A DNA stretch of 26,362 nucleotides, from positions 1,613 to 27,974 of the forward strand of contig CAZHVX010000005.1 of the NCBI GenBank assembly GCA_964536295.1, given 5' to 3'. This stretch comes from an uncultured Pseudomonadota bacterium. Its GTDB lineage: Bacteria; UBA10199; CAZHVX01. The notes below the pieces were generated by a model, which had not been told where the DNA came from, searched no databases, and was given only the letters and a program-made list of their open reading frames with translations. This document shows positions 4,974 to 24,900 of the stretch, piece by piece (positions within the stretch are counted from its first letter, which is position 1; the number at the start of each line of letters is the position of its first letter). Made by a program: the position numbers and the translations under genes.

Positions 4974-4980
4974 TTGTGTA

Positions 4981-5087
4981 CGCGGATCTAACGCCGATCT
5001 GCTACACGGATCTAACGCGGATCCATCTATTATAAATGAAAAGATCGGCGTTTGATCAGCGTTGTCGGTCTGCGTTTGATCAGCGCC
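4981..5087 (+). repeat. GATC-rich imperfect palindromic element, copy 1 of 3. It is built from GATCTAACGC / GCGTTTGATC half-sites around an AT-rich centre TTATAAAT, and ends about 10 nt before the gvpN2 RBS.
   Basis: The element cgcGGATCTAACGCcGATCTgctacacgGATCTAACGCgGATCcatctattataaatgaaaaGATCggcgtttGATCagcgttgtcggtctgcgtttGATCagcgcc has at least 8 GATC sites and dyad symmetry. Confidence 0.8.
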
Positions 5088-5109
5088 ACAAAAATATAGG
5101 AGGTGAATC

Positions 5110-6063
5110 ATGGACTTTTTAGAATCATGTGCTATTCAAATTTCCCCGGATCAACCATCATTTGTTAAATCTCCATATATTGAGGAAATTGTTGGCCGTG
5201 CCATGAACTACATTAAAATTGGGGCACCTGTCCACTTTCAGGGACCGTCCGGTACGGGTAAGACCACATTGGCCATGTACATTGCGGGTAAATTGGGGAA
5301 GCCCACAATACTTATACATGGCGATGAGGAATTTGGCACATCAGATCTGGTTGGGAAAAGCAATGGATATCGTTCCAAACGGGTTTATGACAACTTTATA
5401 CAATCGGTTAAAAAGTTTGATGAAAAGTTCGAATCATCATGGGTTGATAACCGCCTCACCTTGGCCTGCAAACATGGCTGCACTCTTATTTACGATGAAT
5501 TTACTCGTTCGCGACCAGAGGCCAATAATGTCCTTTTATCGGTCCTGGAAGAAAAAATACTTGATATTCCAACTGCTGCTGGTTCCGAAGATGCAAACCT
5601 ACTCCACGTTCATCCGGATTTTACAGTCATTTTTACAAGCAATCCTGAAGAATATGCCGGTGTTCATAAATCGCAGGATGCCTTAAGGGATCGGATGATA
5701 ACGATTAACCTGGATCATTATGACCGGGATTCTGAAATTACTATTACAGAGAAAAAGGCGCAGGTCCCGCGAAAACAGGCCTCGATAATAGTAGATCTGG
5801 TTCGTGATTTTCGAAAAACTGAACAATATAAATTCAGTCCCACGGTGCGCGCTTGCATTATGATTGCAAAAATTTTAAAACTTGGCGGTGCAAAACCAAA
5901 CAGCAAAGACGATTTATTTATGAGGACCTGCTTTGACATCCTTGATCCGGAGACATATCGCGTTGTCGGCACTGGAAAGGAAGAGATGAATAGAAACAAG
6001 GCACGTACAATCATAACGAAGTTGGTGGCAAAACACTGCGATAATGGGGGAAAGACAAAATAA
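5110..6063 (+). CDS. gvpN: Gas vesicle AAA+ ATPase GvpN, copy 2.
   Basis: It has the Walker A motif GPSGTGKTT and is collinear with copy 1 (the motifs NRLT.ACK.G.TLIYDEFTRSRPEANNVLLS and FTSNPEEYAGVH.SQDALRDRM are shared). The RBS AGGAGGTG is present. Confidence 0.9.
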   Translation: MDFLESCAIQISPDQPSFVKSPYIEEIVGRAMNYIKIGAPVHFQGPSGTGKTTLAMYIAGKLGKPTILIHGDEEFGTSDLVGKSNGYRSKRVYDNFIQSVKKFDEKFESSWVDNRLTLACKHGCTLIYDEFTRSRPEANNVLLSVLEEKILDIPTAAGSEDANLLHVHPDFTVIFTSNPEEYAGVHKSQDALRDRMITINLDHYDRDSEITITEKKAQVPRKQASIIVDLVRDFRKTEQYKFSPTVRACIMIAKILKLGGAKPNSKDDLFMRTCFDILDPETYRVVGTGKEEMNRNKARTIITKLVAKHCDNGGKTK

Positions 6064-6076
6064 AAAGAGGTGTCCT

Positions 6077-6406
6077 ATGAAAAATAAATTTCAGGGTTTA
6101 GACGCTATTCCCACAATGCAGAAAAAGAAAATTCGCTCTATGCCCAAAACAGAAGGACAGGACTATCTGGATCTTTATATCCTGGAGAAGGAGAAAAATA
6201 GATTAAAGCAGGAGGAACATCAGGCAAAGAAGCGTTCCAAACAGGTTGAGGAAGGATTAAAATTTGCGGAAGAAGAGATAGGGAGATTAGAAAAAGAACT
6301 GCCTGAGAGAAGTAAGGAAACAAGAGAGGGAAAAGGCAAGAAAAAAGACGAGTTCAAAAAACGGCTACCAAAAAAACCGTTTAAGGTGATGAAACTTGAC
6401 TACTGA
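6077..6406 (+). CDS. Hypothetical K/E-rich coiled-coil protein.
   Basis: The RBS AAAGAGGTG precedes ATG 6077. No recognisable motif is present. The sequence is strongly charged (EKEKNRLKQEEHQAKKRSKQVEE). Confidence 0.4.
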   Translation: MKNKFQGLDAIPTMQKKKIRSMPKTEGQDYLDLYILEKEKNRLKQEEHQAKKRSKQVEEGLKFAEEEIGRLEKELPERSKETREGKGKKKDEFKKRLPKKPFKVMKLDY

Positions 6407-6407
6407 T

Positions 6408-6504
6408 GCCGCTGATCTAACGCGGATCTACTACGCTGATCAAGCACAGATCTTTATAATAAAGGATCAGCGTTAGATCGGCGTTGTGGATCAGCGTTAG
6501 ATCC
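6408..6504 (+). repeat. GATC-rich imperfect palindromic element, copy 2 of 3, ending about 10 nt before the RBS of the 6525 gene.
   Basis: The element gctGATCTAACGCgGATCTactacgctGATCaagcacaGATCTttataataaagGATCaGCGTTAGATCggcgttgtgGATCaGCGTTAGATCcg has the same half-sites and AT-rich centre as copies 1 and 3. Confidence 0.8.
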
Positions 6505-6524
6505 GTGTTTACAAAGGAGGGAAA

Positions 6525-6923
6525 ATGGAAAAACATACCGAAGAATTCACATGGCAACCATATCGACATGCAGGTGGAAAGGCTAGAGTTGGGAAAAAAG
6601 GACAACTATTAAAAGGCTCGACGTTCGATTGCGCCTTTTGTAATGGCACCGGAGAAAAGCCGCGTGGATCAAAGTGTTCAGTTTGTCGGGGCGAAGGAAA
6701 GATAAAGGTTGATCCACCAGCTGTATATTGCGCCTATTGTCATGGACGGGGTGAGACTCCACCACGCAGCAATTGTACCTGTACCGTTTGTCGTGGTAAG
6801 GGCGTGGTAAGTATCCAACAGCCGGTTGAGGCCTGTGCTCATTGTCGTGGAACGGGGGCCGAACCGGGCAACAAACTGCCTTGTTTAAAGTGCCGCGGTA
6901 AGGGTGTTGTAGCGAAGAAATAA
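6525..6923 (+). CDS. Third stand-alone CxxCxGxG-repeat zinc-finger protein (DnaJ CR-like), with an N-terminal extension.
   Basis: The motifs CAFCNGTG, CSVCRGEG, CAYCHGRG, CTVCRGKG, CAHCRGTG and CLKCRGKG are present. The RBS AAAGGAGGG precedes the start. Confidence 0.7.
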   Translation: MEKHTEEFTWQPYRHAGGKARVGKKGQLLKGSTFDCAFCNGTGEKPRGSKCSVCRGEGKIKVDPPAVYCAYCHGRGETPPRSNCTCTVCRGKGVVSIQQPVEACAHCRGTGAEPGNKLPCLKCRGKGVVAKK

Positions 6924-6924
6924 G

Positions 6925-6952
6925 ATCCCCTCTTCCCTTGGGGAGAGGGTCA
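6925..6952 (+). terminator. Imperfect GC-rich hairpin (CCCCTCTTCCCttGGGGAGAGGG) just after the stop at 6923. Possible terminator or attenuator.
   Basis: The inverted repeat is seen directly. There is no clear T-tract, because the next gene's RBS follows. Confidence 0.3.
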
Positions 6953-6967
6953 GAGTGAGGAGGAGAT

Positions 6968-7285
6968 ATGCCCAACGGAACAGAAAAAAAGGCCTTAGAG
7001 GCTATGTATGAATTGGGCGGCAAGGCAGATATCCGTACAGTAAGCCGTCATATCAGTGTAGATACAAACTATGCGCGTCTTCTTTGTAATGCCTTAGGGA
7101 GGGCGGACTATATCGATATCGATCGGACCGGGCTCTGCGTCCTGGCACCTAAGGGTAAGTCAGAGTTGAAGGCCATGGGAAAGTGGAAAGTCGCTGAAGG
7201 TGATTCAGAAACCAGGCCGGATCCGATGGATGTCGATATCCAAGAACGAATCGATGCATATCAGAAAAAACACCGAGCGTCTTAA
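6968..7285 (+). CDS. Small protein with a winged-helix-like region. Candidate transcriptional regulator.
   Basis: The RBS GAGGAGGAG precedes the start. The segment KALEAMYELGGKADIRTVSRHISVDTNYARLLCNALGRADYIDIDRTGLCVLAPKG reads like an HTH plus wing, but the assignment is by pattern only. Confidence 0.4.
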   Translation: MPNGTEKKALEAMYELGGKADIRTVSRHISVDTNYARLLCNALGRADYIDIDRTGLCVLAPKGKSELKAMGKWKVAEGDSETRPDPMDVDIQERIDAYQKKHRAS

Positions 7286-7297
7286 GGAGTATATGTT

Positions 7298-8092
7298 ATG
7301 AAAAAAGCCTTTGGGAGAGAACCCATTAGAACAAAGTCAGAGAAGGTTGGCAATGTCAGTCGTGAGGCCCATGCCGCCATGCGCGCGGAAAAGGCACGAA
7401 TAATCAGCGACATAGAGGTGCCGAGATTGTCAAAGATGAAGTATACCGTTCAGCACTGGGAGGAAAAACAAAAAGAGATTGCTGAAGAGGTTACTAAGGA
7501 CGAAGGAAAAATTGAAGTGGTAAGCGAAGTGGTCGAACCAGATGAAGAAAAGCAATCCTTAGAAGAGGGACAGCCCTTAAAGGAGATGGCAAACGATAGT
7601 TTGGAAAAATTTATCTCTAAGAAGGACGTGAAAGCAGGTATTAAGGGCGATTTGGAAACCTGGCAGCCCGTAGTCATAAATTTGAATGGCCAAAAGGTAG
7701 ATAAGGACAAAAAGGAGCCGCCTATAAAGGTAAATACGGCCTCGATATGGAGAGTTGCCCGAGCGGCGATGGCCCAGGAGTGGAGAAGAGCCTTGGGTCG
7801 ACCGCAGAAGAGTAGAACAGAATCGTATTATGAACGAGAGGCACGGGAGTGGGAGAAGAAGAAGATAGAGGAAAAAGAGCGGGTAGTGCGGGAAAAAGAA
7901 GAGGTCATGAGAAAGAGACAGGCCAAAATTGAAGCAAAAAGGTTGGAAAAAGAGAGGAAAGAGGCAGAAGAGAAGATGCGTAAAATGGAGAAGGCCCATA
8001 ATTGGGCAAGCGGTGGAAAAGGTGACTTAGGTATGGAGACGTCAAATTGGGATAAGAAAATTGCAAATGCAAAGGATGGAAAATTATTATAG
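7298..8092 (+). CDS. Hypothetical highly charged (E/K-rich) protein with a coiled-coil C-terminal half.
   Basis: The ORF is long and has an upstream RBS (AAGGAGTAT). No recognisable motif is present. Confidence 0.45.
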   Translation: MKKAFGREPIRTKSEKVGNVSREAHAAMRAEKARIISDIEVPRLSKMKYTVQHWEEKQKEIAEEVTKDEGKIEVVSEVVEPDEEKQSLEEGQPLKEMANDSLEKFISKKDVKAGIKGDLETWQPVVINLNGQKVDKDKKEPPIKVNTASIWRVARAAMAQEWRRALGRPQKSRTESYYEREAREWEKKKIEEKERVVREKEEVMRKRQAKIEAKRLEKERKEAEEKMRKMEKAHNWASGGKGDLGMETSNWDKKIANAKDGKLL

Positions 8093-8101
8093 GAGGGGAA
8101 A

Positions 8102-8383
8102 ATGAATGAAAAGTGTTTTACAGCAAAGGAGGTCGTAGCGACCATCACCAAGTTCTTTGAAGATGACCTGGGCAAGGTAGGGCGTGTGATCGAGGTGACC
8201 AACAAGGGAAATGGTGATGGCTGGAACGCCAGAGTTGAGGCCCTGGAAGAAAGCGCCTATATGCGTTCAATGGGCCGGGGAGACATGCTGGGTGTTTACG
8301 ACGTAACGCTGGATAATAATTTAAATGTTATGACTTATTCACGAAAAAAACTCCGTGAACGGACGTCGTTGGAAGAAGAATAA
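8102..8383 (+). CDS. gvpO: GvpO-like gas vesicle protein, paralog 1.
   Basis: The C-terminal motif ...GDGWNARVEALEESAYMRSMGRGDMLGVYDVTLDNNLNVMTYSRKK matches the GvpO pattern (GW.V.VEV.ER......D..G.Y.V..D....V.GYE). It is paralogous to 14739-15005. Confidence 0.6.
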   Translation: MNEKCFTAKEVVATITKFFEDDLGKVGRVIEVTNKGNGDGWNARVEALEESAYMRSMGRGDMLGVYDVTLDNNLNVMTYSRKKLRERTSLEEE

Positions 8384-8387
8384 ACGC

Positions 8388-8490
8388 GTTTATCCCCCTC
8401 CCTTGAGGGGAGGGGTTAGGGGAGGGTGGTCACGTGATCACCCCCACCTAGCCTCCCCCATCTCCGCCAAAGGCGGATCAGCCTCAGGCT
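8388..8490 (+). other. Hairpin-dense spacer: CCCCTCCCttgaGGGGAGGGG, a GGTGGTCACGTGATCACC region with the palindromic core TCACGTGA, CCGCCaaaGGCGG, and AGCCTcAGGCT.
   Basis: Four separate inverted repeats lie within about 100 bp between gvpO1 and hsp20. They could act as terminators, RNA-processing elements or operators. Confidence 0.4.
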
Positions 8491-8546
8491 GAAAGGATAT
8501 AATGGAGGTAGACTAAGGATGGAAAATTATTATAGGAGGAAATAAA

Positions 8547-9110
8547 ATGACCGAAAAGAAAAAAGAAAAAGAAAAGGATGGAGCCGATTTTGACATTGGT
8601 AGTCTTGGAGATTTGGGTGGAACAATTGGCGGTATATTTAAGGGACTAGGTGGTTTGATTGATTTGGCTTCAAAGTTAAAAGAAGCCGGTGGTGAGATGA
8701 ACAAGGCCGGTGAGTTCGATTTAGGTGAGAAGTTTAAAAATCTCAAAGGCGCCTATGGTTTTAACATCCGAACGGCAACTGGTAAAGATGGTACGGAAAA
8801 ACCGATAGTTGAACCCATTGGCAGAAAGGTGAGGGAAACTCCCGAAGGGCCGGTGGTGGAGGAAGAACTAGAACCGATTGTCGATGTATTCGATGAGGTC
8901 GATAAAATACAGGTAGTTGCTGAATTACCGGGCGTTACAGAAGATAAGATTAGTTATGAAATCGAAGGTGATATCCTAACCTTACATGCCGAGGGAAAAA
9001 AGAAATACAGCAAGGAGATATTGCTTTCATCCGCAGTTGATAAGGATGGTGTTACTACTTCGTACAAGAATGGAGTCTATGAATTAAAGATGAAGAAAGT
9101 AAAGCAGTAG
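8547..9110 (+). CDS. Hsp20/alpha-crystallin family small heat-shock protein, with a G-rich N-terminal region.
   Basis: The C-terminal alpha-crystallin-like fold VDVFDEVDKIQVVAELPGVTEDKISYEIEGDILTLHAEG...YELKM carries the 'AELPGV' and I-x-I/V-like motifs. The RBS AGGAGGAAA precedes the start. Confidence 0.75.
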   Translation: MTEKKKEKEKDGADFDIGSLGDLGGTIGGIFKGLGGLIDLASKLKEAGGEMNKAGEFDLGEKFKNLKGAYGFNIRTATGKDGTEKPIVEPIGRKVRETPEGPVVEEELEPIVDVFDEVDKIQVVAELPGVTEDKISYEIEGDILTLHAEGKKKYSKEILLSSAVDKDGVTTSYKNGVYELKMKKVKQ

Positions 9111-9119
9111 GAGAACAAA

Positions 9120-11309
9120 GTGGCAGACAAAAAACCAAAGAAATCGCAAAAAGGCACGACAAAAAAGAATGGCCTTCCGCTCAAGGTGGCCGAGGCCTTG
9201 AGTAAAGACGTCGGTCGCGGTATTGCCAGAATTGATCCTGCTTATATGGAAAACCTGGGCGTTTCTATCGGAGATATCGTTCAAATCGATGGGAAGCGTA
9301 AAACTGTTGCCAAGATTATGCCCACATATATGGATGACCGCGGCAAGAAGCTTATACAAATAGACGGTGTTGTCAGGGAAAATGCCAAATCTGGTCTTGA
9401 TGACAGGGTGTTTGTTGACAAGGCATCACATAATCCGGCCAGTCAAATTGTCCTGACTGCGTTGACTGCGGCTCCGGCACGTGGTGAAGATGCCCGTTAT
9501 ATTGGCAGGCTTTTCGAAGGGCTTCCTTTGGTGTCGGGCGATAGGGTAAGGGCCACACTCTTTGGTACACGCTCGCGTGATTTTAAAGTGGTCAGCACCA
9601 GCCCTGAAGGTGTGGTTTTGGTAACACCCACAACAAACATAAAGATCAAGGGTGAAAAGAAGGCTGCAGAGGAAAGGGGACCTCACGAGGTTTCATATGA
9701 AGACGTTGGAGGCTTGGGTAAGGAAATAAATAAGATTCGCGAGATGATCGAACTTCCATTACGGTATCCGCAGGTCTTTGATCGTCTGGGCATTGATCCT
9801 CCAAAGGGCGTGTTATTACACGGACCTCCAGGAACTGGAAAAACTTTAATTGCAAGGGCGGTTGCCCATGAATCGGAGGCAAACTTTTTTTCCGTTAACG
9901 GTCCTGAGATTGTGCATAAATTTTACGGTGAATCAGAGGCGCATCTTCGATCCATTTTTGAAAAGGCGGCGGAGGCGGCTCCTTCAATAATCTTTATTGA
10001 TGAAATAGATGCCATTGCGCCCAAACGTGCCGAGGTGACTGGCGATGTGGAAAAGCGCATCGTTGCTACACTTCTGGCTATGATGGACGGGCTTAAAGGT
10101 CGGGGTCAAGTCATTGTTATTGGCGCCACAAATATTCCAGATGTTATGGATCCGGCGCTTCGTCGTCCGGGCCGTTTTGATCGAGAGATTGTGATCGGTA
10201 TTCCAGACAAGAATGGCCGTGAACAAATTTTAGATATTCACACGCGAGGTATGCCACTGACCGAAGATGTCGACATTGGACATTTTGCGGCAATTACGCA
10301 TGGCTATGTTGGCGCCGATTTGGAAGCGCTTGCTCGTGAAGCAGCTATGATTTCGCTTCGTAAGGTCTTCGATAAGGTGGATTTTAATCTCGATGAAATA
10401 CCTTATGAAACATTGGTTTCTTTGGAAGTCAACATGGATTGTTTTATTCGGGCGCTCAACGAAGTTACACCCTCGGCCATACGCGAGGTCTTTGTAGAGG
10501 TTCCGGATGTTAAGTGGGAAGATGTTGGCGGTCTTGAAGATACGAAAGAGATCCTTAAAGAAACAGTGGAGTGGCCTTTAAAATATGAAAGACTTTTTGC
10601 TCATGCGAACGCCAAGGCGGCCAAAGGTATTTTGTTGGACGGCCCTCCGGGAACGGGTAAGACCTTGCTAGCAAAGGCCCTGGCCAATGAGAGTGAGGTG
10701 AACTTTATCTCCATTAAAGGACCTGAGCTCATAAGTAAATGGGTCGGCGAAAGTGAAAAGGGCGTTCGTGAAATATTCAAAAAAGCCAGACAGGCTGCTC
10801 CTTGCATTTTGTTCTTTGATGAAATCGACAGCATTGCACCAAGACGCGGTGGAGGCGAAGGAGATTCCGGTGTTACCCAAAGGGTTATAAGCCAATTTTT
10901 GACTGAACTCGACGGCCTTGAAGAGTTAAAGGGCGTGGTGATCCTGGGGGCAACCAACCGAAAAGACATCCTTGATCCAGCATTGATTCGTACCGGCAGG
11001 TTTGATTTATCAATAACACTCCCGATACCCGATTTCAAATCCAGAGAGGCAATATTCGAGGTCCATACAAGGAATAAGCCATTGGAGAAAAAGATCAATT
11101 TTAAGGAGATGGCCAGGGCAACTGAAGGTATGGTTGGGTCCGATATCGAGGAAGTGTGCCGGCAGGCTATCATGTTGGCGTTAAGAGAGTTTATCCACAA
11201 ATATGAGGATGACGCCAACAAGGAATGTGAGAAGTTCAAGGTCAAGGCCTCTCATTTTACAGAGGCATTAAAATACATAAAGAAGCAAAAAAGAGGTACA
11301 AGCCAATGA
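9120..11309 (+). CDS. Cdc48/VCP/VAT-type ATPase with two AAA domains and an N-terminal Cdc48-N domain.
   Basis: N-domain: [37 protein letters not shown]1 has Walker A GPPGTGKT, Walker B IIFIDEID and the SRH motif [14 protein letters not shown]2 has [17 protein letters not shown] and [10 protein letters not shown]. The start is GTG with AGGAG 8 nt upstream. Confidence 0.9.
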
Positions 11310-12346: not shown

Positions 12347-13092
12347 CTACAGAAGGCAAGTATATATATTGCATCATCGGAACCAGTGATCCAAGGCACT
12401 TTGGTCCCATCGGCATCGGTGAACGGAACGATGAGGTGACTACAATTGGTGCCAGGGATATCTCTGCCATTGTCAGCAATACTCCGATGGAAAAGTATGT
12501 TGTCAGTAGAGAAAATCTAACTGCCCATGAAAAGATAATTGAAAAGGTGATGTCAGAATATACGGTGTTACCCGTCCGCTTTTGTACCGTTGCTACCAGT
12601 ACGCAGGAGGTGATGGATTGCTTGAAGAGGCGTTATCCCGAGTTCAAAAACCTGCTAAGAGATATGGATAACAAGGTAGAAGTTGGTTTGAAGGTAGTTT
12701 GGAATGACATGCAAACGGTGTTCGATGAACTTGTAGCTGAAAATGATGATATAAGACAGATGAAAGAAGCTGGCAAAATAAAGAAACGTAATGATTTAAT
12801 AAATGCTGGTAAAATTGTCGAAGCCATCTTGGAAGAGAAAAGAAGTATGGAGGAGGGAAGATTATTTCGTGACTTAAAGAAGGTTGCATCAGATTTTAAG
12901 AGTGCCAAGCGACATGGTGATAATATGTTGACCAATGCTGCGTTTCTGCTCGATAAGGGACGGCAGCGAGCATTTGATAATCAAGTAGAAACTTTGGTGG
13001 AGGAGAATAAGGATCGATTTACGGTTAATTATGTCGGTCCGGCACCTCCGTTTAATTTTGTAAACATTGAGATAAAATTTGCAGGGGAATAA
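12343..13092 (+). CDS. gvpF: Gas vesicle protein GvpF/L family.
   Basis: The N-terminus KYIYCIIG... and the C-terminal VGPAPPFNFV are typical GvpF features. There is a 4-bp overlap with the upstream gene. Confidence 0.85.
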   Translation: MTTEGKYIYCIIGTSDPRHFGPIGIGERNDEVTTIGARDISAIVSNTPMEKYVVSRENLTAHEKIIEKVMSEYTVLPVRFCTVATSTQEVMDCLKRRYPEFKNLLRDMDNKVEVGLKVVWNDMQTVFDELVAENDDIRQMKEAGKIKKRNDLINAGKIVEAILEEKRSMEEGRLFRDLKKVASDFKSAKRHGDNMLTNAAFLLDKGRQRAFDNQVETLVEENKDRFTVNYVGPAPPFNFVNIEIKFAGE

Positions 13093-13200
13093 AAAGTGTA
13101 TAGGTGTATAAGTGTATGAGTTTTTAAGTTAGGAAATGAAAAATTTAGACATTTTAACTTATATACTTATACACTCAAAAACTTATACACTAGTAAAGAT
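13093..13200 (+). promoter_or_regulatory. Intergenic module 1. Forward 8-bp tandem units (GTGTATAG GTGTATAA GTGTATGA GTTTTTAA) are followed by a central AT-rich segment and then the same units in reverse orientation (CTTATATA CTTATACA CTCAAAAA CTTATACAC).
   Basis: The direct and inverted octamer arrays are seen directly. The module lies immediately upstream of the gvpF at 13201. Confidence 0.55.
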
Positions 13201-13959: not shown

Positions 13960-14061
13960 TGGGAGTGTATGAGTATATGAGTGCATAAGTACATAAGCAT
14001 ATAAGTTGAAGTGATTGAAATTTCTATAATCTAATTTAGAAACTTATACACTGAGGTTAAT
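13960..14061 (+). promoter_or_regulatory. Intergenic module 2. An octamer array (GTGTATGA GTATATGA GTGCATAA GTACATAA GCATATAA) is followed by the conserved core AGTTGAAGTGATTGAAATTTCTATAATCTAATTTAGAAACTTATACAC, which contains a perfect TATAAT at 14025-14030. Candidate gvpG promoter or operator.
   Basis: The ~48-bp core is ~90% identical to 17126-17173. TATAAT is present. The -35 is ambiguous: TTGAAG sits 13 bp upstream. Confidence 0.55.
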
Positions 14062-14427
14062 ATGGGTTTAATATTAAACATACTGGGGGCACCGATAGCG
14101 GGGCCAATTAGGTTCTTACAGTGGACGGCCGAAAAGGTAAATGAAACCGTTCATAAAGAAAGGACTGACAAATCTAAGATCCAGGCGGAACTTCTATCGC
14201 TCCAGATGCGCATGGAAATGGATGATATTACCGAAGAAGAATTTACAAAGAGAGAAGATGAACTTCTGGCGCGATTAGATGAAATTAATAAAATCGAAAC
14301 AGGTGAACCAATAGAAAAGAAAACAAAAAAGAAAAGGGGGGCTTATGCCAAAGAAAAGAAAGCTGGGCAGGTCGATCAGCAAAAAGAAGAAAACGACAAA
14401 GAAAGTGACGAAGAAGAAGACGTTTAA
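14062..14427 (+). CDS. gvpG: Gas vesicle protein GvpG, with an acidic/basic low-complexity C-terminal extension.
   Basis: The N-terminus MGLILNILGAPIAGPIRFLQWTAEKV..., followed by EEEF..RE.EL...L, is the conserved GvpG pattern. The last ~35 aa come from purine-rich low-complexity DNA that is also read in another frame by the 14345 ORF. Confidence 0.75.
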   Translation: MGLILNILGAPIAGPIRFLQWTAEKVNETVHKERTDKSKIQAELLSLQMRMEMDDITEEEFTKREDELLARLDEINKIETGEPIEKKTKKKRGAYAKEKKAGQVDQQKEENDKESDEEEDV

Positions 14428-14716
14428 GAAAGCAGCAAAGAAAAAGACAGCGAAGAAGGCGACAAAGAAGACAACAAAGAAGACGACAAAGAAGACAACG
14501 GCAAAGAAAAAGACAGCTAAGAAGGCGACAAAGAAGACAACCAAGAAGAAAGCGGCAAAGAAAAAAACAGCTAAGAGAAAAGACAAAGCCACTTTACTAA
14601 AAGTAGAAAAGAGGCAGGTCCTTTCAGAAATTCAGGCATTACGTGAAAAGTTAAGAAAAGCACGTGCTAAGAATATTAAGCAAAGACAAACAGATTTTAC
14701 TAAATACACACGCTGA
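14345..14716 (+). CDS. Lysine-rich, histone-H1-like basic protein with K-K-T/A-T/A-K-K repeats. Candidate DNA- or surface-binding protein. It overlaps the 3' end of gvpG in the +1 frame.
   Basis: An independent RBS-like run AAAAGGGGGG sits 5 nt before ATG 14345. The protein MPKKRKLG...KKTTKKVTKKKTFKKAAKKKTAKKATKKTTKKTTKK... has a non-repetitive C-terminal 40 aa (LLKVEKRQVLSEIQALREKLRKARAKN), which suggests real coding. Low-complexity DNA gives open frames easily, so caution is needed. Confidence 0.45.
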   Translation: MPKKRKLGRSISKKKKTTKKVTKKKTFKKAAKKKTAKKATKKTTKKTTKKTTAKKKTAKKATKKTTKKKAAKKKTAKRKDKATLLKVEKRQVLSEIQALREKLRKARAKNIKQRQTDFTKYTR

Positions 14717-14738
14717 AACGCAAAGGGAGGTGAGCCTT

Positions 14739-15112: not shown

Positions 15113-17089
15113 ATGGAGAATAAAAAATCTCCATCCTTTTTGACTAATGGTCAAAAAAGACTGATATTTTTTGGTGGCAAAGGCGGCGTGGGTAAAACCA
15201 CCACCGCCGCCGCGTCAGCCATTTTTATAGCCAGGCAATTTCCTCAAAAAAAGGTTCTTGTTCTCTCCACCGATCCCGCACATTCCTTGTCCGATTGTTT
15301 TGAGATATTGCTTAATGATGAGGTTTCTTCGATAAATGGGTTGTCGAACCTCTTTGCTAGAGAATTAGATGCTGCTCGTTTATTAGATGCGTTCAAAGAT
15401 AAGAATGAAAAGATTATCAAGGTGTTGGCCGAAAGGGGAACCTATTTTGATAATGAGGATATTGAAAGTTTCTTTTCTTTATCACTCCCCGGTATGGATG
15501 AAGTAATGGCGGTTATAGAGATATATAATCTTTTTGTAAAAGGTGAGTATGAAACGATTATTATCGATACCGCGCCTACCGGCCATACTATGAGACTGCT
15601 TTTACTTCCTAACCAACTGGAGCAATGGATAGATCTTTTTAACTTGATGCAAGAAAAGCATCGGATCATGACTCGCCGTTTTTCCGGAAGATATGCGCCT
15701 GATGAGGCAGATAAATTTCTTGAAGATTTGACTCATGACCTGAAAGAAATGAGGAGCCTGCTTTCCAATCCTGCTATTACGGAGTTTGTTCCAATCACCA
15801 TCCCTGAGAAAATGAGCTTTAATGAAACGTGTAGACTTCTTGGGGTCTTGAGAGATTGTCATATGCCGGTAAGGAATATTATTGTTAACAACGTGATAAA
15901 GTCTGAGTCTTGTGAATATTGCCAAAAACAATATGAGGCACAAAAATCTGCCATAGAAAAAATCAGGAATTTATTTAAAGATTTTAATATAATGCACATG
16001 CCGCTATATCCGAAGGAGGTGCGGGGAGTCAATGCGCTCAGCGAATTTGCAGGCAGTTTAGTGGGTGAAGAAGTAAACTTTCAAGGGATGGTTCATAGGT
16101 CCAAAAGGAGTGATGGTGATCAACGTATCAAACTTGAACGTTTTCTAAACGACGATTTACAGATGTTGCTTGTTGGAGGCAAAGGAGGAGTTGGAAAGAC
16201 ATCAATTGCAACTGCACTTGCATTAAAGTTTTCCGGGAAATATCCAGATAAAAAAGTCTTACTTTTTTCTACCGATCCTGCCCATTCCTTGTCGGATAGC
16301 CTTGGGCAAGAAATAGGGAATAAAGTAACACAAGTCCAGGCAAGGCCTCTTGCTTCAAATTTATTTGCCATCGAAATCAATGCTGAAAAACTATTTGATG
16401 ATTTCGCAAAAAAATACAAAAGAGAAATAGATGATGTATTTGATGGTTTTTTCAATAGCTCATCTACAGCGGGAATGGATTTTAGCTACGATCGAAGTCT
16501 GATGAAAAAACTTATAAACGTATCGCCTCCTGGACTGGATGAATTGATGGCCTTAAAGGAAATCATGAATTACATAGATAAAGATACATACGATTTCTAC
16601 ATCTTGGATACCGCTCCAACTGGGCATTTGCTACGTTTTTTGGAGCTGCCTTCATTGGTACAAGGCTGGCTGAAGGCAATCTTTAGGCTTTTGATTAAAT
16701 ATGAAGGTATGGTGAATTTGAACAGTGTGGCAGAAAAGATGGTGGAACTTTCAAAGAGTGTAAAGCGGATCAAGGCGATCCTTTGCGATTCCAAAAGGGC
16801 CAAATTTCTTGCAGTTACTATTCCTGAAGCAATGGGGTTTGAAGAGACAAAAAGGCTTGTGGATTCACTTCACAATTTGGATATAGCGTGCACGGGTCTT
16901 GTCATTAATAAAATTTTCCCCAGTGTAAAGTGTGGCTTTTGTGGAATAAAAAGGGACGAACAATTAGAATATGCTAAAAAGATAGAGAAGAAACTTAATA
17001 TAAAACATGTTGCCCGCGTACCTCTGTTTCCATCAGAGATCGTGGGGGTTGAAAAATTAACAAAGTTTGGAGACAGAGCTTTTTATTAG
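15113..17089 (+). CDS. Fused tandem ArsA/Get3-family ATPase (two complete ArsA-like halves).
   Basis: There are two deviant Walker A P-loops (GGKGGVGKTTTAA and GGKGGVGKTSIAT). There are two STDPAHSLSD motifs. Two A-loop or signature motifs, DTAPTGHT(M/L)R(L/F)L, are present. The fused-dimer architecture is typical of ArsA and Get3 anion-pump or tail-anchored targeting ATPases. Confidence 0.85.
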   Translation: MENKKSPSFLTNGQKRLIFFGGKGGVGKTTTAAASAIFIARQFPQKKVLVLSTDPAHSLSDCFEILLNDEVSSINGLSNLFARELDAARLLDAFKDKNEKIIKVLAERGTYFDNEDIESFFSLSLPGMDEVMAVIEIYNLFVKGEYETIIIDTAPTGHTMRLLLLPNQLEQWIDLFNLMQEKHRIMTRRFSGRYAPDEADKFLEDLTHDLKEMRSLLSNPAITEFVPITIPEKMSFNETCRLLGVLRDCHMPVRNIIVNNVIKSESCEYCQKQYEAQKSAIEKIRNLFKDFNIMHMPLYPKEVRGVNALSEFAGSLVGEEVNFQGMVHRSKRSDGDQRIKLERFLNDDLQMLLVGGKGGVGKTSIATALALKFSGKYPDKKVLLFSTDPAHSLSDSLGQEIGNKVTQVQARPLASNLFAIEINAEKLFDDFAKKYKREIDDVFDGFFNSSSTAGMDFSYDRSLMKKLINVSPPGLDELMALKEIMNYIDKDTYDFYILDTAPTGHLLRFLELPSLVQGWLKAIFRLLIKYEGMVNLNSVAEKMVELSKSVKRIKAILCDSKRAKFLAVTIPEAMGFEETKRLVDSLHNLDIACTGLVINKIFPSVKCGFCGIKRDEQLEYAKKIEKKLNIKHVARVPLFPSEIVGVEKLTKFGDRAFY

Positions 17090-17214
17090 TGCAAAAGTGT
17101 TTAAGTGTATAAGTGTATGAGTATATAAGTGTAGAAGTTGAAGTAATTGAAATTTCTATAATCTAACTTAAAAACTCATACACTTAAACACTTATGGACT
17201 TAAGGGAGGTATTT
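17090..17214 (+). promoter_or_regulatory. Intergenic module 3. An octamer array (GTGTTTAA GTGTATAA GTGTATGA GTATATAA GTGTAGAA) is followed by the conserved core AGTTGAAGTAATTGAAATTTCTATAATCTAACTTAAAAACTCATACAC, with TATAAT at 17156-17161, and then reverse octamers. Candidate gvpJ-K-L promoter or operator.
   Basis: The core is near-identical to module 2. It sits immediately upstream of gvpJ. Confidence 0.55.
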
Positions 17215-17885: not shown

Positions 17886-18651
17886 AGTTGCAAAATATCT
17901 CTATTGTATTGTCGACGCGAGTGAAGAGGTTAATTTGGGCAACGTTGGTATTGAAAGAGGTGAGGTTTATACAATTGTTTACAAAGATATCGCAGCAATA
18001 GCGCACGATTGTCATCCTGAGCCTTATCAATCGGATGATAAGCAGGTGGTAGAGAGCTGGGTCAAATCTCATCAAGCGGTCATTGATCTATGCTGGGAGC
18101 GATTTGGTACAATACTGCCTTTTGGATTCGATACCATAATCCAGGGGAGTGAAGAAAGAAATCCTCTTGAAAACACAAAAAAATGGATTAGCGATGATCA
18201 TGATAAGTTAAAGGGACAAATTGAGAAGCTTCGTGGAAAGGCGGAATATGGGATTCAGATTTCCTGGGATCCAAAAATTATCATAAATGAATTTTGCAAA
18301 ACCAACAAAGAGATTAAAGCCTTGGAAAAAGAGATATCTACAAAATTAGAAGGTGCGGCATATATGTATAGGCAAAAGCTGGAGGGGTTGTTTCGCAGCG
18401 AATTGGAGAAAAAGGCAAATGAGTTTTTTAAAGAAGCATTCGATAATTTTAAGGTCTATCTGAAAGATGTCAAAGTAGAAAAGGTCAAGAAAATGGATGA
18501 CGGTAGGCAGATGCTGATGAACCTTTCGTGTCTTTTAGAAAAGGGTGAAACTAAAGATCTTGGGGACGAATTGGAGAAAATTGATAAGCGGGAAGGCTTC
18601 TTTGTGAAATTTACCGGCCCATGGCCACCTTATTCTTTCGTAAGTGCATAA
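17872..18651 (+). CDS. gvpL: Gas vesicle protein GvpL/GvpF family.
   Basis: The N-terminus AKYLYCIVD... and the C-terminal FTGPWPPYSFV are GvpF/L hallmarks. The start is taken as TTG 17872, preceded by GAAGGGAGG 5 nt upstream. The ATG at 17803 is an alternative in-frame start that would overlap gvpK by 83 nt. Confidence 0.75.
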   Translation: MINPKVAKYLYCIVDASEEVNLGNVGIERGEVYTIVYKDIAAIAHDCHPEPYQSDDKQVVESWVKSHQAVIDLCWERFGTILPFGFDTIIQGSEERNPLENTKKWISDDHDKLKGQIEKLRGKAEYGIQISWDPKIIINEFCKTNKEIKALEKEISTKLEGAAYMYRQKLEGLFRSELEKKANEFFKEAFDNFKVYLKDVKVEKVKKMDDGRQMLMNLSCLLEKGETKDLGDELEKIDKREGFFVKFTGPWPPYSFVSA

Positions 18652-18682
18652 GTGTATGAGTGTATGAGTTGGAGAGTTGAAT
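18640..18682 (+). promoter_or_regulatory. Intergenic module 4 (short): GTGCATAA GTGTATGA GTGTATGA GTTGGAGA octamer units upstream of the four-helix-bundle gene.
   Basis: The GTGTATRA unit family is the same as in modules 1 to 3. Confidence 0.45.
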
Positions 18683-19048
18683 ATGAAAATAGAGAGATTT
18701 GAAGAATTAGATTGCTGGAAGGCAGCACGGGAACTAGTGACAATAGTTTACAAACTTACACGAGAGAAAATGTTTAGTAGGGATTTTGGATTGAGGGATC
18801 AAATTCAAAAAGCTGCTATTTCAACAATGGCAAATATCGCCGAGGGGTTTGCTGCCAATTCGGATAGGGAATTCATTAGATTCCTAGGATATGCAAGTCG
18901 TTCTGCTATTGAAGTTCAATCACATTTATATGCTACCCTCGATTTAGAATATATAGAGCATGATCAATTTGATAAGGCCTTCAATAAGGCTCAAGATTGT
19001 ACAAATTTATGTAGAGGTTTAATTCGATATTTAAAAACAAAAACTTAA
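18683..19048 (+). CDS. Four-helix-bundle protein of the '23S rRNA intervening-sequence / S23 ribosomal protein' family.
   Basis: The protein MKIERFEELDCWKAARELVTIVYKLTREK...RDQIQKAAISTMANIAEGFAANSDREFIRFLGYASRSAIEVQSHLY is the characteristic pattern of this small, widely scattered family (..W..A..L...IY.LT..FP..E...L..QL.RAA.SI..NIAEG....S..E...FL..A.GS..E....L). The assignment is motif-based. Confidence 0.6.
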   Translation: MKIERFEELDCWKAARELVTIVYKLTREKMFSRDFGLRDQIQKAAISTMANIAEGFAANSDREFIRFLGYASRSAIEVQSHLYATLDLEYIEHDQFDKAFNKAQDCTNLCRGLIRYLKTKT

Positions 19049-19096
19049 AAACAAAAACTTATGGACTTATAAACTTATACACTCATACACTTATTT
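19049..19096 (+). promoter_or_regulatory. Intergenic module 5: reverse-orientation octamers (ACTTATGG ACTTATAA ACTTATAC ACTCATAC ACTTATTT) directly abutting the gvpM start.
   Basis: These are the reverse complement of the GTGTATRA family. There is no RBS between the module and ATG 19097. Confidence 0.45.
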
Positions 19097-19369: not shown

Positions 19370-19380
19370 CAGGGGGATTT

Positions 19381-19560: not shown

Positions 19561-19568
19561 GGGGCTCG

Positions 19569-19952
19569 ATGGCGAGGATTCCTTCAAAAAGTGGGCTGGA
19601 TACATTAAAGGTGCGCAGGGAGCCAAGGCTCGTTAATAACGAACCGGTCCTTTTGTGGCAACAAGGTTCTTACGATTGCGGCAGCTCCTTATCGTCAAGC
19701 TGGAAGCTGGGATTTATATGCTTAACAAAGAATAACATATACTTCCTCCAGGGAAAGCGATGTGTCCTGGAGATAGACTCTCAGCAGATAAGAGAAATTA
19801 CTATTCTAAAAAGAAGTTGGGTCTTGGGGAAGGTGATTGATCAATTGTTTATTAGGATCGTAGACGCAATACAAAGGACAAAGAAATATTACTTTGGTGT
19901 CGATAAACCTGAAAGGTGGAAAGAGGCAATCGAGGGGGTAATAGATGGCTAA
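19569..19952 (+). CDS. Bacterial PH/GRAM-like domain protein, translationally coupled to the DnaK-like gene by an 8-bp overlap.
   Basis: The segment PVLLWQQGSYDCG...WKLGFICLTKNNIYFL resembles the N-terminal PH/GRAM-like module of 21678-22550 (EKVILKSKGGLNDG..WRMGEICLTNERLLFL). It is shared by two proteins flanking dnaK. Confidence 0.5.
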   Translation: MARIPSKSGLDTLKVRREPRLVNNEPVLLWQQGSYDCGSSLSSSWKLGFICLTKNNIYFLQGKRCVLEIDSQQIREITILKRSWVLGKVIDQLFIRIVDAIQRTKKYYFGVDKPERWKEAIEGVIDG

Positions 19953-21681: not shown

Positions 21682-22550
21682 AAAAAGTAGCATTAAATCC
21701 CAATGAAAAAGTAATCCTCAAAAGCAAAGGCGGCCTAAACGATGGTAGTCAGTCACGTTGGCGAATGGGAGAAATTTGTCTTACAAACGAGAGGCTTTTA
21801 TTTCTCCAACCCTTTGGAATTACTTGTGAAATAGCATTATCCTCGATGGACGAAGTGGGTGTGGAGAAAAAGGACTATGCCTTCGGTCAGAAAAATGCGT
21901 TGTTCTTGAAATATAAGCACAATAATGAGGGCAATGATAAGCATGGCACAATTTGGGTAGTTACGCCAGAGCTGGATAGGTGGAAGGAAAAGCTTTGTGG
22001 TTGGATGCTGATTCAAGTGACTGAAGAAGATTTGGGCAAGGTCTGTGAAAAATTAGATCCGGACTCGGAACGAATTGTTTGGCACTTTTGGGAGGTATCG
22101 CACGCTCGCATCGATGAGCTGGCAACTCTCATTGGTGCTTCGGCGCATATGGATGTGCTCATAAAGATAAGGAACGAGATCAACAAGGTTGCCAGTGAAA
22201 TATTAGGATATCCGTTATTGACATTTGATGTATCCAAAAAAGATCCGGAAACCGAAAAGGATGTTACCTATAGTTGGTGGCTGATAGGCCGTGGCGGTAG
22301 GACAATATCCAAAGAGACTTTTTGCGATGTGTTTGACGAGGGAAAACAATTGGTGGTGGTGGTTGAATTGCTTGGCGTTGATGATAAAGACCTCGATCTT
22401 CAAATAGATCAAAAACGTATTCGGATCAACAATTCAAGTAATGGGAATTGTGAAAAGGAGGTATTCTTGCCCGTCGAAATTGTAGTCGATAAGATCCAGC
22501 AACGTTTTAATAATGGGATTTTGGAAATCAGGGCAACAAAAAGGGGCTGA
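21678..22550 (+). CDS. Two-domain protein: an N-terminal bacterial PH/GRAM-like domain and a C-terminal Hsp20/alpha-crystallin-like domain.
   Basis: The N-terminus parallels 19569-19952. The C-terminal segment QLVVVVELLGVDDKDLDLQIDQKRIRINN...VFLPVEIVVDKIQQRFNNGILEIRATK resembles an alpha-crystallin beta-sandwich. There is a 4-bp overlap with dnaK. Confidence 0.55.
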   Translation: MKKVALNPNEKVILKSKGGLNDGSQSRWRMGEICLTNERLLFLQPFGITCEIALSSMDEVGVEKKDYAFGQKNALFLKYKHNNEGNDKHGTIWVVTPELDRWKEKLCGWMLIQVTEEDLGKVCEKLDPDSERIVWHFWEVSHARIDELATLIGASAHMDVLIKIRNEINKVASEILGYPLLTFDVSKKDPETEKDVTYSWWLIGRGGRTISKETFCDVFDEGKQLVVVVELLGVDDKDLDLQIDQKRIRINNSSNGNCEKEVFLPVEIVVDKIQQRFNNGILEIRATKRG

Positions 22551-22657
22551 AATGGTAGAAAAATCTAGCGAGATTAAATGTTCAATATTTCAAAAGGAAG
22601 AGTGGGTTGCAAAACAACTAACTTCCTACATTATATTGATGTAAAATAAACGAACTT

Positions 22658-23380
22658 ATGAAAGATTATTACGAAATATTGGAGGTGCATCCACGAGCTA
22701 GCCAGGAGGTTATCAAAAAGGCCTATCTGGTTTTGTCCAAGCGTTATCACCCGGATGCCCATGACAGTGAAAGGGCTGGCTGGGCCGAGGAAAAGTTCAA
22801 GGTGATAAATGAGGCCTTTCAGACATTGGGTGATTTAGTTAAGCGCAAGGGGTATGATTTGGATCGAGAGGGTAGCGATGATTATGAATACTGCGAGGAA
22901 GAAGAAGTTGAAATCGATGAGAAGGCATATTTTCACTATCGCTTAGGGTTAGATCATTTTGAAAAAACGGATAAAAGAAGATTCATGTCGGTATTGCTGG
23001 GTAGTTGGCAACGAAACTTGAAGTTGGCTCAAAAATATTTTTTAAAGGTTGTTCGTACATTCCCTACTAGTTATTATACTGACCAATCTCAGTATCATTA
23101 TATAGTATGCTTGATGCGTGAGTATGATTACTCAGAAAAACATGCACAATTGGTAGAAAAAGAGACAGAAATGTTTTTAAAATGTTATCCGGAAAGTGAA
23201 TGTAGAGACATTTTTTACTATCAACTAGGTCAGTTTTATTTGTTAAAGCGACAAGACTATAATAAAGCCATTGAAAACTTGAAGCTATTTTTGGCAGCCT
23301 GTCCTGAATCCTCTAATGCAAAGGATGCAAGATGTTTGCTAAAGTATACTATCAGTCGTCAGTCATCAGCTGACAGCTGA
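22658..23380 (+). CDS. J-domain protein (N-terminal DnaJ J-domain with HPD motif) with a C-terminal helical, TPR-like region.
   Basis: The segment DYYEILEVHPRASQEVIKKAYLVLSKRYHPDAH...KFKVINEAFQTLGD is a canonical J-domain. The remainder is helical with Y/L/K-rich repeats resembling TPR. Confidence 0.75.
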   Translation: MKDYYEILEVHPRASQEVIKKAYLVLSKRYHPDAHDSERAGWAEEKFKVINEAFQTLGDLVKRKGYDLDREGSDDYEYCEEEEVEIDEKAYFHYRLGLDHFEKTDKRRFMSVLLGSWQRNLKLAQKYFLKVVRTFPTSYYTDQSQYHYIVCLMREYDYSEKHAQLVEKETEMFLKCYPESECRDIFYYQLGQFYLLKRQDYNKAIENLKLFLAACPESSNAKDARCLLKYTISRQSSADS

Positions 23381-23396
23381 AAGCTTAATTAACGAT

Positions 23397-23732
23397 ATGA
23401 CTTGGATAATTATTATTAGTGTAATAATCGGCATTCTGAGCGGTGTCATGCTGGGTGCATGCCTCGGTAGAACAGGTGTCGTTGAGATGTTTCTGGCTAT
23501 ATGTCGGATCCCTGCATTATTAATCAAATCTCCAAATAAGATAAAATCGATATGGCGGCAATGGCACGAGGAAAGGGCAAAGGTTGCCGTTGCATTCATG
23601 AAGCGCAAAGAACAAATTGCCACGTTAGGAGAGCGGATTGCCAAAAAGAAGGAGGAAATTTGTGGATTAAAGCGTGATATCCGCAAAGTAAGATGGCAAA
23701 TGAAGGAACCGCGGAAAGATAAAACTGTTTGA
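23397..23732 (+). CDS. Small hypothetical protein with an N-terminal transmembrane helix and a charged C-terminal half.
   Basis: MTWIIIISVIIGILSGVMLGACLG is hydrophobic, followed by a K/R/E-rich region. No RBS is evident. Confidence 0.3.
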   Translation: MTWIIIISVIIGILSGVMLGACLGRTGVVEMFLAICRIPALLIKSPNKIKSIWRQWHEERAKVAVAFMKRKEQIATLGERIAKKKEEICGLKRDIRKVRWQMKEPRKDKTV

Positions 23733-23813
23733 TAAAGATGTTGACTGTTACAAAAACTCACCGTAAAAAGATAATTTCAATTTGAAAGAAAATAATTCAA
23801 AGAGGTGTTTTTA

Positions 23814-24200
23814 ATGAAAACGGTATTTATTGTAGATGATAATAGTGAAATTAGAAAGCTTTTCACCAAAGTATTAAAAAAAGAAGGCGTAACGCGTATA
23901 CTTACTGCCTCCAATGGCGAAGGTGCCGTTAAAATAGTGAAAAAGAGGCGAAAAGGGAGCATTGACCTGGTGTTGTTGGACCTGCGGCTTCCAGATATGA
24001 ATGGAATTGAGGTTTTAAAACAGATAAAGTTGATTGATAAAAAGATTAAAGTGATCATAGTGAGTGGAACCTTGAGCGCTGCCCTTGTTGTACAAGTCGG
24101 AAAACTTGGAGCATTTGACATCTTCGGCAAACCCTTTGATTTATTTGAACTGCAGGATGCCATCAAAAAAGCGCTGGCGGCTAATCCGCGTAAACAGTGA
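23814..24200 (+). CDS. Stand-alone response-regulator receiver domain (CheY-like).
   Basis: The segment VFIVDDNSEIRKLF...DLVLLDLRLPDMNGIEVL...IIVSG...KLGAFDIFGKPFD contains the conserved DD, phospho-acceptor D (LLDLRLPD), and S/K residues. The RBS AAAGAGGTG precedes ATG 23814. Confidence 0.8.
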   Translation: MKTVFIVDDNSEIRKLFTKVLKKEGVTRILTASNGEGAVKIVKKRRKGSIDLVLLDLRLPDMNGIEVLKQIKLIDKKIKVIIVSGTLSAALVVQVGKLGAFDIFGKPFDLFELQDAIKKALAANPRKQ

Positions 24201-24379
24201 TTTTCCCGTCCCTGTTGTCAAGAAAATAATTTTACAAAACTCCAATTTATTAATAATATCAAGCAGTTATACGCGCTCAAAAGATCAGAGATTGTTCGTT
24301 TCAACTTGACTCTACGTCTGTATAAGAGTAAAAACGACGTTGCTCAAAACCAATAATTTTTAACAAAAAGGAGGAATTT

Positions 24380-24778
24380 ATGGCAAAAGCAGTATTAGTA
24401 AAAGGGCTTGGCGTTCGTGTACCAGATGCGATTGGTTCGCTTCAAAGTGTCCTGACACCTTTGGCAGAGGCTCGTGTAAATATTGACGCCTTGATAGGTG
24501 GAAGCGTAATTGGCGAAGGCCAGGTTACAGTGGTGTTGCAAGATGTTGTCAAGGCTGTGGATGTACTCAAAAATGTGAACATCGTTCCTTGGGAAACCGA
24601 TGTAGTAGCGGTGGAAGTGAACAATGAGCCAGGTGCGTTGGCCGAGGTTGTATCCAAAGTTACCCAAGCGGGTGTGAATATCCGTTCAACCTGGGTGACC
24701 ACAGGCATTAGTGATGCACTAACACGTCTTTACTTGATCACCGATGACAATACAAAAGTTCTGAATGTCATTGTGTAA
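24380..24778 (+). CDS. ACT-domain protein.
   Basis: The RBS AAAGGAGGA precedes the start. The G-rich loops and beta-alpha-beta pattern ([23 protein letters not shown]...[23 protein letters not shown]) are typical of tandem ACT domains. Confidence 0.55.
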
Positions 24779-24789
24779 TTCTTTTGAAT

Positions 24790-24892
24790 CGCGGATCTAA
24801 CGCCGATCTGCTACACGGATCAAACGCTGATCTATTTATTATAAAAGGATCTGTGTTAGATCTGTGTAGTAGATCTGCGTTAGATCGGCGGC
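24790..24892 (+). repeat. GATC-rich imperfect palindromic element, copy 3 of 3, ending just before the aminotransferase start.
   Basis: The element cgcGGATCTAACGCcGATCTgctacacgGATCAAACGCtGATCTatttattataaaagGATCTgtGTTAGATCtgtgtagtaGATCtGCGTTAGATCggcggc has a left arm nearly identical to copy 1. Confidence 0.8.
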
Positions 24893-24900
24893 TTCAAAAA

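Follow-up and report, generated by a model that had tools for sequence, protein, structure and literature searches.

The window analyzed here, a stretch of 26,362 nucleotides from the uncultured Pseudomonadota assembly GCA_964536295.1 (contig CAZHVX010000005.1), carries a gas-vesicle gene cluster in which three GATC-rich imperfect palindromes of ~100 nt, hereafter the GATC-type hairpins (copies 1, 2, and 3), occupy spacers between genes. With a probability of about 0.6, we regard them as members, devoid of any open reading frame (ORF), of a group of horizontally spread selfish cassettes with inverted arms, which resemble rRNA intervening sequences (IVS) and miniature inverted-repeat transposable elements (MITEs), and would be co-transcribed with the operon in which they reside. 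The elements belong to a sequence-defined family that crosses phyla, and whose other members also enclose a gene of the GxxExxY family or form an insertion in rRNA. On current evidence from sequence comparison, the GATC elements sit in operon spacers and are not conserved with the gas-vesicle genes.

The palindromes were found where the initial annotation had placed them when their coordinates were re-read (Table 1). Each copy is composed of two inverted 40-nt arms, and each arm carries four GATC tetranucleotides with start-to-start spacings of 11, 13, and 11 nt. The arm module reads [CGC]N-GATC-N-AACGC-N-GATC-(TnCw)ACGC-N-GATC-N-AACGC-N-GATC, in which a single free base separates each GATC from the ACGC (ACRC) on its upstream side; the second arm repeats this module in inverse orientation. 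A repeat search assigns the left halves to one direct-repeat family and the right halves to another, the two halves being mutually inverted repeats. Copy 1 is the most decayed of the three and copy 3 the best preserved, and in both the palindrome runs on into the flanks through an outer stem (TTGTG/CACAA and TTTTGAA/TTCAAAA, respectively). Copies 1, 2, and 3 contain 7, 8, and 8 GATC sites instead of the 8 to 10 per copy counted previously, copy 1 having only 7 because one site has decayed to GGTC. The extreme local enrichment noted at the same time is real, since 23 of the 130 GATC sites of the window fall inside ~300 nt, while the window overall is not enriched (130 observed versus 135 expected under a Markov model).

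Copy 1 lies after the end of a 56-residue ORF (position 4973) and before the ribosome-binding site (RBS) of gvpN2 (ATG at 5110). Copy 2 begins 2 nt past a stop codon (6404-6406) and ends ~6-8 nt before the RBS of a Zn-finger gene (ATG at 6525), and copy 3 begins 3 nt past the stop codon of the ACT gene (24776-24778) and reaches the ATG of the aminotransferase gene (24901). All three had been described as running from a stop codon to 8-12 nt before a strong RBS. Their position in spacers stands, and so does the proximity to an AGGAGG-type RBS for copies 1 and 2 (6-11 nt); however, copy 1 is preceded by the AbrB-like 56-residue ORF and not directly by gvpN1, and copy 3 stops 1-8 nt short of the conserved aminotransferase start (MKFKR) with no strong RBS in between. 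The location of copy 3 before the aminotransferase gene also bears out that its occurrence is not restricted to gas-vesicle genes.

A matrix was derived from the alignment of 29 non-redundant arms, taken from the window and from other loci on at least 15 unrelated contigs, and the window arms fit it. The upstream CGC, the third AACGC, and the fourth GATC are conserved among these 29 modules although they were not fixed by the search patterns, and the single bases beside each GATC (the N positions) carry only ~0.1 bit. The pattern GATCWAACGCNGATC-N9-GATC is present in six of the six window arms with at most one mismatch, and is absent from 100 dinucleotide-preserving shuffles. Only three copies are visible, all in one 26-kb window, and the initial annotation had itself raised the eventuality of simple local duplications; such duplications, or a chance similarity, are refuted by the shuffles and by specific matches in many unrelated contigs, also at positions that the patterns leave unfixed, and we hold this explanation to be extremely improbable. 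The left arms of copies 1 and 3 are separated by 19.8 kb and share 93% identity across 56 nt, which comprise the arm plus a portion of the center; this identity covers positions that are free in the family, the first eight or so unconstrained positions being identical, which indicates recent copying within this genome, either by intragenomic spread or by gene conversion.

On the sense strand, copies 1, 2, and 3 fold into single hairpins of 41, 40, and 52 pairs (-46.8, -55.5, and -72.1 kcal/mol; z-scores of -4.6, -9.3, and -12.9). The long dyad with a ~45-bp stem expected earlier is confirmed as to the long hairpins, but the stems are broken by regular 1x1 mismatches, which fall at the unconstrained positions flanking each GATC. 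In the window hairpins, the facing free positions form Watson-Crick pairs in 2/18 cases and G-U pairs in 2/18, no better than chance, and this points to one motif array placed twice in inverted orientation; the dyad thus looks like the by-product of two inverted copies of a conserved array, not of selection for pairing. Copies 2 and 3 have helices of 9-17 bp, for which cutting by RNase III is plausible by analogy with rRNA IVS, and the stem of copy 3, placed at the start codon, could lower the translation of the aminotransferase.

These foldings bear on the proposal that the hairpins are RNA elements adopted by the host, which would set the relative expression of neighboring gas-vesicle genes through RNase III or RNase E processing or through mRNA stability. 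Repetitive extragenic palindromic (REP), enterobacterial repetitive intergenic consensus (ERIC), and Correia elements can act on mRNA processing and stability, and several features of the window would fit such a role: all copies are found on the sense strand of one long operon and exactly in its spacers, copy 3 touches a start codon, and the sense RNA folds 8-15 kcal/mol better than the antisense RNA in five of the six window hairpins, when the GATC-type hairpins and those of the octamer type described below are taken together. Nonetheless, this proposal is rather unlikely, as the free positions do not covary, the G-U bias is non-significant, the module is missing from the syntenic cluster of a relative (L081, see below), and it occurs beside unrelated genes in unrelated phyla. 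Furthermore, no Rfam match at the gathering score is reported anywhere in the window, and terminator and promoter scans return no terminator-like tail and no promoter-like signal above chance at the elements.

When 185,579 species genomes were scanned for the arm pattern, 66 loci came up; the majority are single chance matches, several display the full array, and only about eight are true family members. A stricter pattern applied to metagenome contigs yielded 13 loci, which are for the most part genuine. The hosts of the module belong to at least five phyla and include Chlamydiota, Myxococcota (Myxococcales), Omnitrophota, Saccharibacteria, and low-GC contigs resembling the Candidate Phyla Radiation (CPR), and no match to the arm module was found in viral contigs, plasmids, or phages. 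Empty hairpins fill the stop-to-start spacers of L050, L057, L073, L076, L079, and L080, while single arms are located just upstream of start codons or between genes in L018, L028, L058 (rpsL/rpsG), L069, and L070. Among the loci found, these empty and single-arm copies outnumber those bearing an ORF. At L074, 128 nt replace 8 model positions of a 23S rRNA directly after GGAGGAAAAGAAA, in the region of helix 9. Helix 9 is one of the three classical sites of IVS, which are selfish stem-loops excised by RNase III (PMC4990558), and short uncharacterized inserts have been noted at such rRNA sites in CPR bacteria (PMC11270868).

Some of these loci display features of their own. The CPR-type L073, L076, and L079 share a nested design with two outer arm units, an inner GATC palindrome, and a variable hairpin, as well as a conserved 3' mini-hairpin, TTTTTCAC-GAAG-TGAAAAA, which immediately precedes the start codon of the downstream gene. 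In L080, a hydrogenase/NuoD-like gene downstream of the element exhibits an in-frame TAG in its conserved RICGIC motif (~1250-1290, minus strand), which may be a sequencing error or a case of recoding. An ORF near L075 that looked like IS200/RAYT has no Pfam match, and the ORF next to it is SpoVG. The GIY-YIG (L068) and UPF0102 (L077) genes, considered as cargo, stand beside the arms without being enclosed by them and were not counted.

The link between the module and the GxxExxY genes is seen in L026, a Chlamydiota metagenome-assembled genome (MAG), where a GxxExxY gene (TIGR04256, 101 bits; PF13366) lies exactly between a left and a right arm, the whole cassette separating a tldD-like gene from a pmbA-like one. 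L086, another Chlamydiota MAG, carries its GxxExxY gene (10001-10477) in this same spacer and bracketed in the same way, and further arm-bracketed GxxExxY genes are found in L071 and L088. In L088, the flanking arms (3860-3935 and 4310-4385) retain the architecture with GATC replaced by GAAC on one side and by GTTC on the other. Homologues of the L026 protein at 60-80% identity occur in Chlamydiota and several CPR phyla, and 80 of 120 homologue clusters end with SA, QR, PR, or LR, compared with none of 120 aminotransferases and none of 120 GvpN proteins. These endings correspond to the GATC-N-GCGT arm translated in its three frames, the stop codon being located inside the arm. In some clusters the tail is long, as in DQRQIRVADPRLIRVVDPRLIR, or the N-terminus is extended by NADQ. 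The claim that in-frame translation of the window repeat yields a spurious peptide also holds true. The GxxExxY proteins are PD-(D/E)XK-like and nuclease-like.

The centers of the window GATC copies are 12-18 nt long and contain no ORF. These AT-rich segments resemble the ORF junctions of the GxxExxY cassettes (compare L086, 9985-10005): that of copy 3 contains GATCTATTTAT, identical to the sequence preceding the ATG in L086, and that of copy 1 contains ATGAAAA and reads FIYN on the minus strand, akin to the conserved (I/V)YD tail. To judge by such similarities, the centers may be remnants of a deleted ORF.

The regular spacing of the four GATC sites of each arm (11/13/11), and the conservation of motif positions next to free intervening ones, as expected for a sequence read by a protein, are also compatible with protein-binding arrays on double-stranded DNA, that is, Dam/SeqA-type operators or regulator sites about one helical turn apart. 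The initial annotation had listed a methylation-sensitive operator among the possible roles. This is not supported and appears quite improbable: the settings of the module, which span at least five phyla, include the interior of a 23S rRNA gene, a spacer between ribosomal protein genes, and the flanks of selfish ORFs, sister arms keep the architecture with GAAC/GTTC or octamers in place of GATC, the related gas-vesicle cluster of L081 is devoid of the module, and no promoter-like signal exceeds chance at the elements.

The sister arms with octamers belong to a second palindrome family of the window, built from octamer sub-repeats, AAGTGTAT and its complement, which comprises three empty hairpins and one ORF-bearing copy in the spacers of the gas-vesicle operon (Table 1). 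The cargo of the latter (ORF 18677-19048) is a 23S_rRNA_IVP four-helix-bundle protein (PF05635, 103 bits for a cut-off of 33.8), and its arms are complementary at 24 of 29 positions. When the empty hairpin at 13091-13200 is compared with this cassette, its similarity to the 5' end covers the arm, the ATG, and ~20 nt of the ORF, a sign that it arose through internal deletion. Another IVP gene lies in L086 between inverted ATTTCGA-type arms. In this small sample, the type of arm follows the cargo, with arms of 7-8-nt period around three of three IVP genes and ACGC-N-GAWC arms around five of five GxxExxY genes, one of which has the GAAC/GTTC arms instead of GATC.

Table 1. Positions of the GATC-type and octamer-type elements in the window.
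Element	Position	Strand	Parts and location
GATC-type hairpin copy 1	4974-5093	.	Left arm 4981-5024, AT-rich center 5025-5042, right arm 5043-5087
GATC-type hairpin copy 2	6408-6507	.	Left arm 6410-6452, center 6453-6464, right arm 6465-6507
GATC-type hairpin copy 3	24781-24900	.	Left arm 24790-24832, center 24833-24847, right arm 24848-24892
Empty octamer hairpin	13091-13200	.	Between two gvpF/L paralogues
Empty octamer hairpin, partly decayed	13964-14071	.	Between gvpF/L and gvpG
Empty octamer hairpin	17085-17203	.	Between the ArsA-like ATPase gene and gvpA (ATG 17194)
Octamer cassette with ORF	18640-19096	+	Inverted arms 18640-18676 and 19050-19096; between gvpF/L and a gvpA-like gene

The direction of the derivation may be questioned. 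If the hairpins were older and served as primary landing pads, GxxExxY and IVP genes would have homed into their loops, and the window copies would be targets not yet invaded. The excess of empty and single-arm copies among the loci found would then be expected, and an entry at hairpin tips would agree with the rRNA copy, which lies at the tip of a helix, and with the complementarity of the flanks in copies 1 and 3 (PMC4990558). We nevertheless deem this scenario unlikely, considering that the hairpin at 13091-13200 retains the IVP start codon and ~20 nt of coding sequence, a sign of deletion, and that the arm type follows the ORF family in both groups of genes. The same flanks and rRNA site are, in themselves, a hint that the elements enter pre-existing hairpins.

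Returning to the interpretation of the window palindromes as ORF-less selfish cassettes, the element would be transcribed within the polycistronic mRNA and fold into an imperfect hairpin, and, since the RNA folds back on itself, its presence would be tolerated. Copies 2 and 3, which are better paired, may be cut by RNase III as rRNA IVS are, and the ORF-less copies would derive from ORF-bearing cassettes through internal deletion. Spread or homogenization might be achieved in trans by a protein reading the ACGC-N-GATC array, the candidate being the GxxExxY nuclease-like protein. A broader and speculative version, to which we lend limited credence, considers the array as the recognition site of undescribed cross-phylum mobile cassettes, whose own small protein would read the cognate arms and promote a homing-like spread into hairpin tips and operon spacers, GxxExxY being the reader of the 11/13-nt arms and 23S_rRNA_IVP that of the arms with a 7-8-nt period. 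If it were true, such a reading of cognate arms would account both for where rRNA intervening sequences come from and for what two very large orphan protein families do.

The comparison with related gas-vesicle clusters bears on whether the elements travel with their neighbors. L081, a relative whose aminotransferase is 73% identical, possesses a syntenic gas-vesicle cluster. The 21 kb that were read there lack any GATC module, and this cluster instead contains a palindrome of another kind, the CGTATCTCGT type. At the position of copy 3, upstream of the aminotransferase gene, L083, L084, and L085 have unrelated hairpins or tandem repeats. On current evidence, the conservation of the host genes does not extend to the module, which behaves as a passenger and not as a gas-vesicle regulator. 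The spacer elements of these relatives (L081, 2974-3081; L083, 2895-2975; L084, 1495-1555; L085, 165-225) comprise CGTATCTCGT/ACGAGATACG palindromes, tandem GAGATAC heptamers, and a GGGGAGAGGG-type hairpin. L082 has a GATC hairpin (4108-4195) and a single GATC arm (3580-3625) upstream of its aminotransferase gene, in a rearranged context. Within the segment 3560-4200 of this locus, the ACT gene lies between the single arm and the hairpin in the orientation opposite to that of the window, an arrangement that hints at an inversion by recombination between arms.

Several observations weigh against the selfish-cassette interpretation. No orthologous empty site is available for copies 1 and 2, the search with GvpN2 having given no usable junction because its closest homologues are at most 60% identical. 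No direct target-site duplication is seen at the window copies, and the derivation could run in reverse, with ORFs homing into pre-existing hairpins. The window holds no GxxExxY gene, and this family is listed as of unknown function, without any demonstrated activity (PMC3424549). At the RNA level, the G-U strand test for selection is weak and non-significant (sense versus antisense 13:5 in the window, p ~0.1; 23:16 over the whole family), and the sense strand folds better than the antisense in copies 2 and 3 but not in copy 1 or in several relatives. Moreover, copy 1 would be a poor RNase III substrate because none of its helices exceeds 5 bp.

All genes of the window are encoded on the plus strand. 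The gas-vesicle cluster comprises two GvpN paralogues, GvpA-type, GvpF/L, GvpG, GvpO, and GvpH/Hsp20-like proteins, along with Cdc48-like and ArsA-like ATPases, three small DnaJ-type Zn-finger proteins, Hsp70, and DnaJ, and is followed by a response regulator, the ACT protein, and the aminotransferase. The nearest named homologues of the latter belong to Deltaproteobacteria MAGs (~65-67% identity), and a Bacillus-type origin, which the gene names had suggested, is rejected on this ground. Identical sequence is present in the sample SRR11548473. At the left edge of the window, a 70-nt segment is duplicated with 96% identity (1-70 and 475-544), which fits tandem gvpA-type copies. The ORF 1377-2369 (330 residues, no Pfam family) contains three tandem repeats of 132 nt (44 residues) that are 62-72% identical (1677-2098). 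The three small Zn-finger proteins (2440-3215 and 6525-6923) consist almost wholly of DnaJ-type CXXCXGXG repeats, and are encoded in the gas-vesicle cluster alongside the Hsp70, the J-domain protein, and the Cdc48-like ATPase. The 56-residue ORF between gvpN1 and copy 1 (4803-4973; MSLLRGFSNVDKEGKIPIPNNIKRELKLKPGAMVEIRV...) is AbrB/SpoVT-like by appearance and was called as a gene on an identical Logan contig of 3.4 kb. Lastly, tandem repeats of 12/15 nt rich in AAG/ACA codons (14383-14588) encode, past the GvpG domain, a low-complexity tail rich in Lys and Thr.

If the selfish-cassette interpretation is correct, at least seven spacers of this gas-vesicle cluster hold passengers, which may still perturb expression, for example at the aminotransferase start site. 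It would also provide a testable function for the GxxExxY and 23S_rRNA_IVP families, account for spurious SNADL/IRVRSA-type peptide tails and for false CRISPR-like annotation calls, and imply that conspicuous GATC clusters need not signal regulation by Dam. Among known systems, the GATC clusters bound by Dam and SeqA (oriC, pap, agn43) serve the host as regulatory sites and are conserved between orthologous loci. The window elements share with them a local clustering of GATC at a spacing of about one turn but, in contrast, have no conserved counterpart in the related cluster, and in many phyla they are found in rRNA and beside selfish genes.

MITE-like palindromes, such as the Correia/NEMIS elements of Neisseria, the enterobacterial ERIC, and the pneumococcal BOX/RUP, measure ~100-150 nt, reside in transcribed spacers in several copies per genome, and can be processed by RNase III or change mRNA stability. 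The window family differs from them by its inverted-complementary flanks, with neither a direct target duplication nor a recognized insertion-sequence transposase, by arms made up of tandem sub-repeats whose sequence is the same across phyla, and by the cargo of its ORF-bearing relatives, a GxxExxY nuclease-like gene whose product is not known to act as a transposase. Like REPs, bacterial interspersed mosaic elements (BIMEs), and the REPIN-RAYT system, the window copies are short extragenic palindromes, and REPs often lie between convergent or co-directional genes. REPs are 20-40 bp palindromes with a GTAG or CGTC head (PMC3733652); the window arms are devoid of such a head, and no RAYT gene is seen in the window. 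Hence, of the MITE- or REP-like selfish repeat proposed initially, the selfish character is retained, in view of the cross-phylum arms shared with GxxExxY cassettes and a 23S IVS, but target duplication and GTAG/CGTC head are missing, and no transposase is recognized.

The closest parallel is with the 23S rRNA IVS of Salmonella, Leptospira, Coxiella, and helix 9 of alphaproteobacteria. In both, complementary terminal arms form an extended stem-loop, a small ORF may or may not be present (the sister cassette of the window carries one of the IVP, or S23p, family), the spread across lineages is sporadic, and the character is selfish; L074 occupies the helix-9 site itself (PMC4990558). However, IVS reside in an rRNA gene, at the tip of helix 9, 25, or 45, whereas the window copies are found in mRNA spacers between protein genes, are devoid of an ORF, and exhibit arms of phased short motifs with regular mismatches rather than a near-perfect stem. 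Excision by RNase III without religation, a trait of IVS, would apply to the window copies by analogy only. GxxExxY (TIGR04256/PF13366) and 23S_rRNA_IVP (PF05635) are the cargo of the GATC-type and of the octamer/heptamer-arm cassettes, respectively, while the GATC copies of the window encode no protein. The arm family was not found in the literature searched, the coverage of which is incomplete. Selfish spacer palindromes and rRNA intervening sequences are already known kinds of element; what appears undescribed in that literature is a single arm module linking empty spacer hairpins, GxxExxY cassettes, and 23S IVS across phyla, as well as an arm type that tracks the cargo family.

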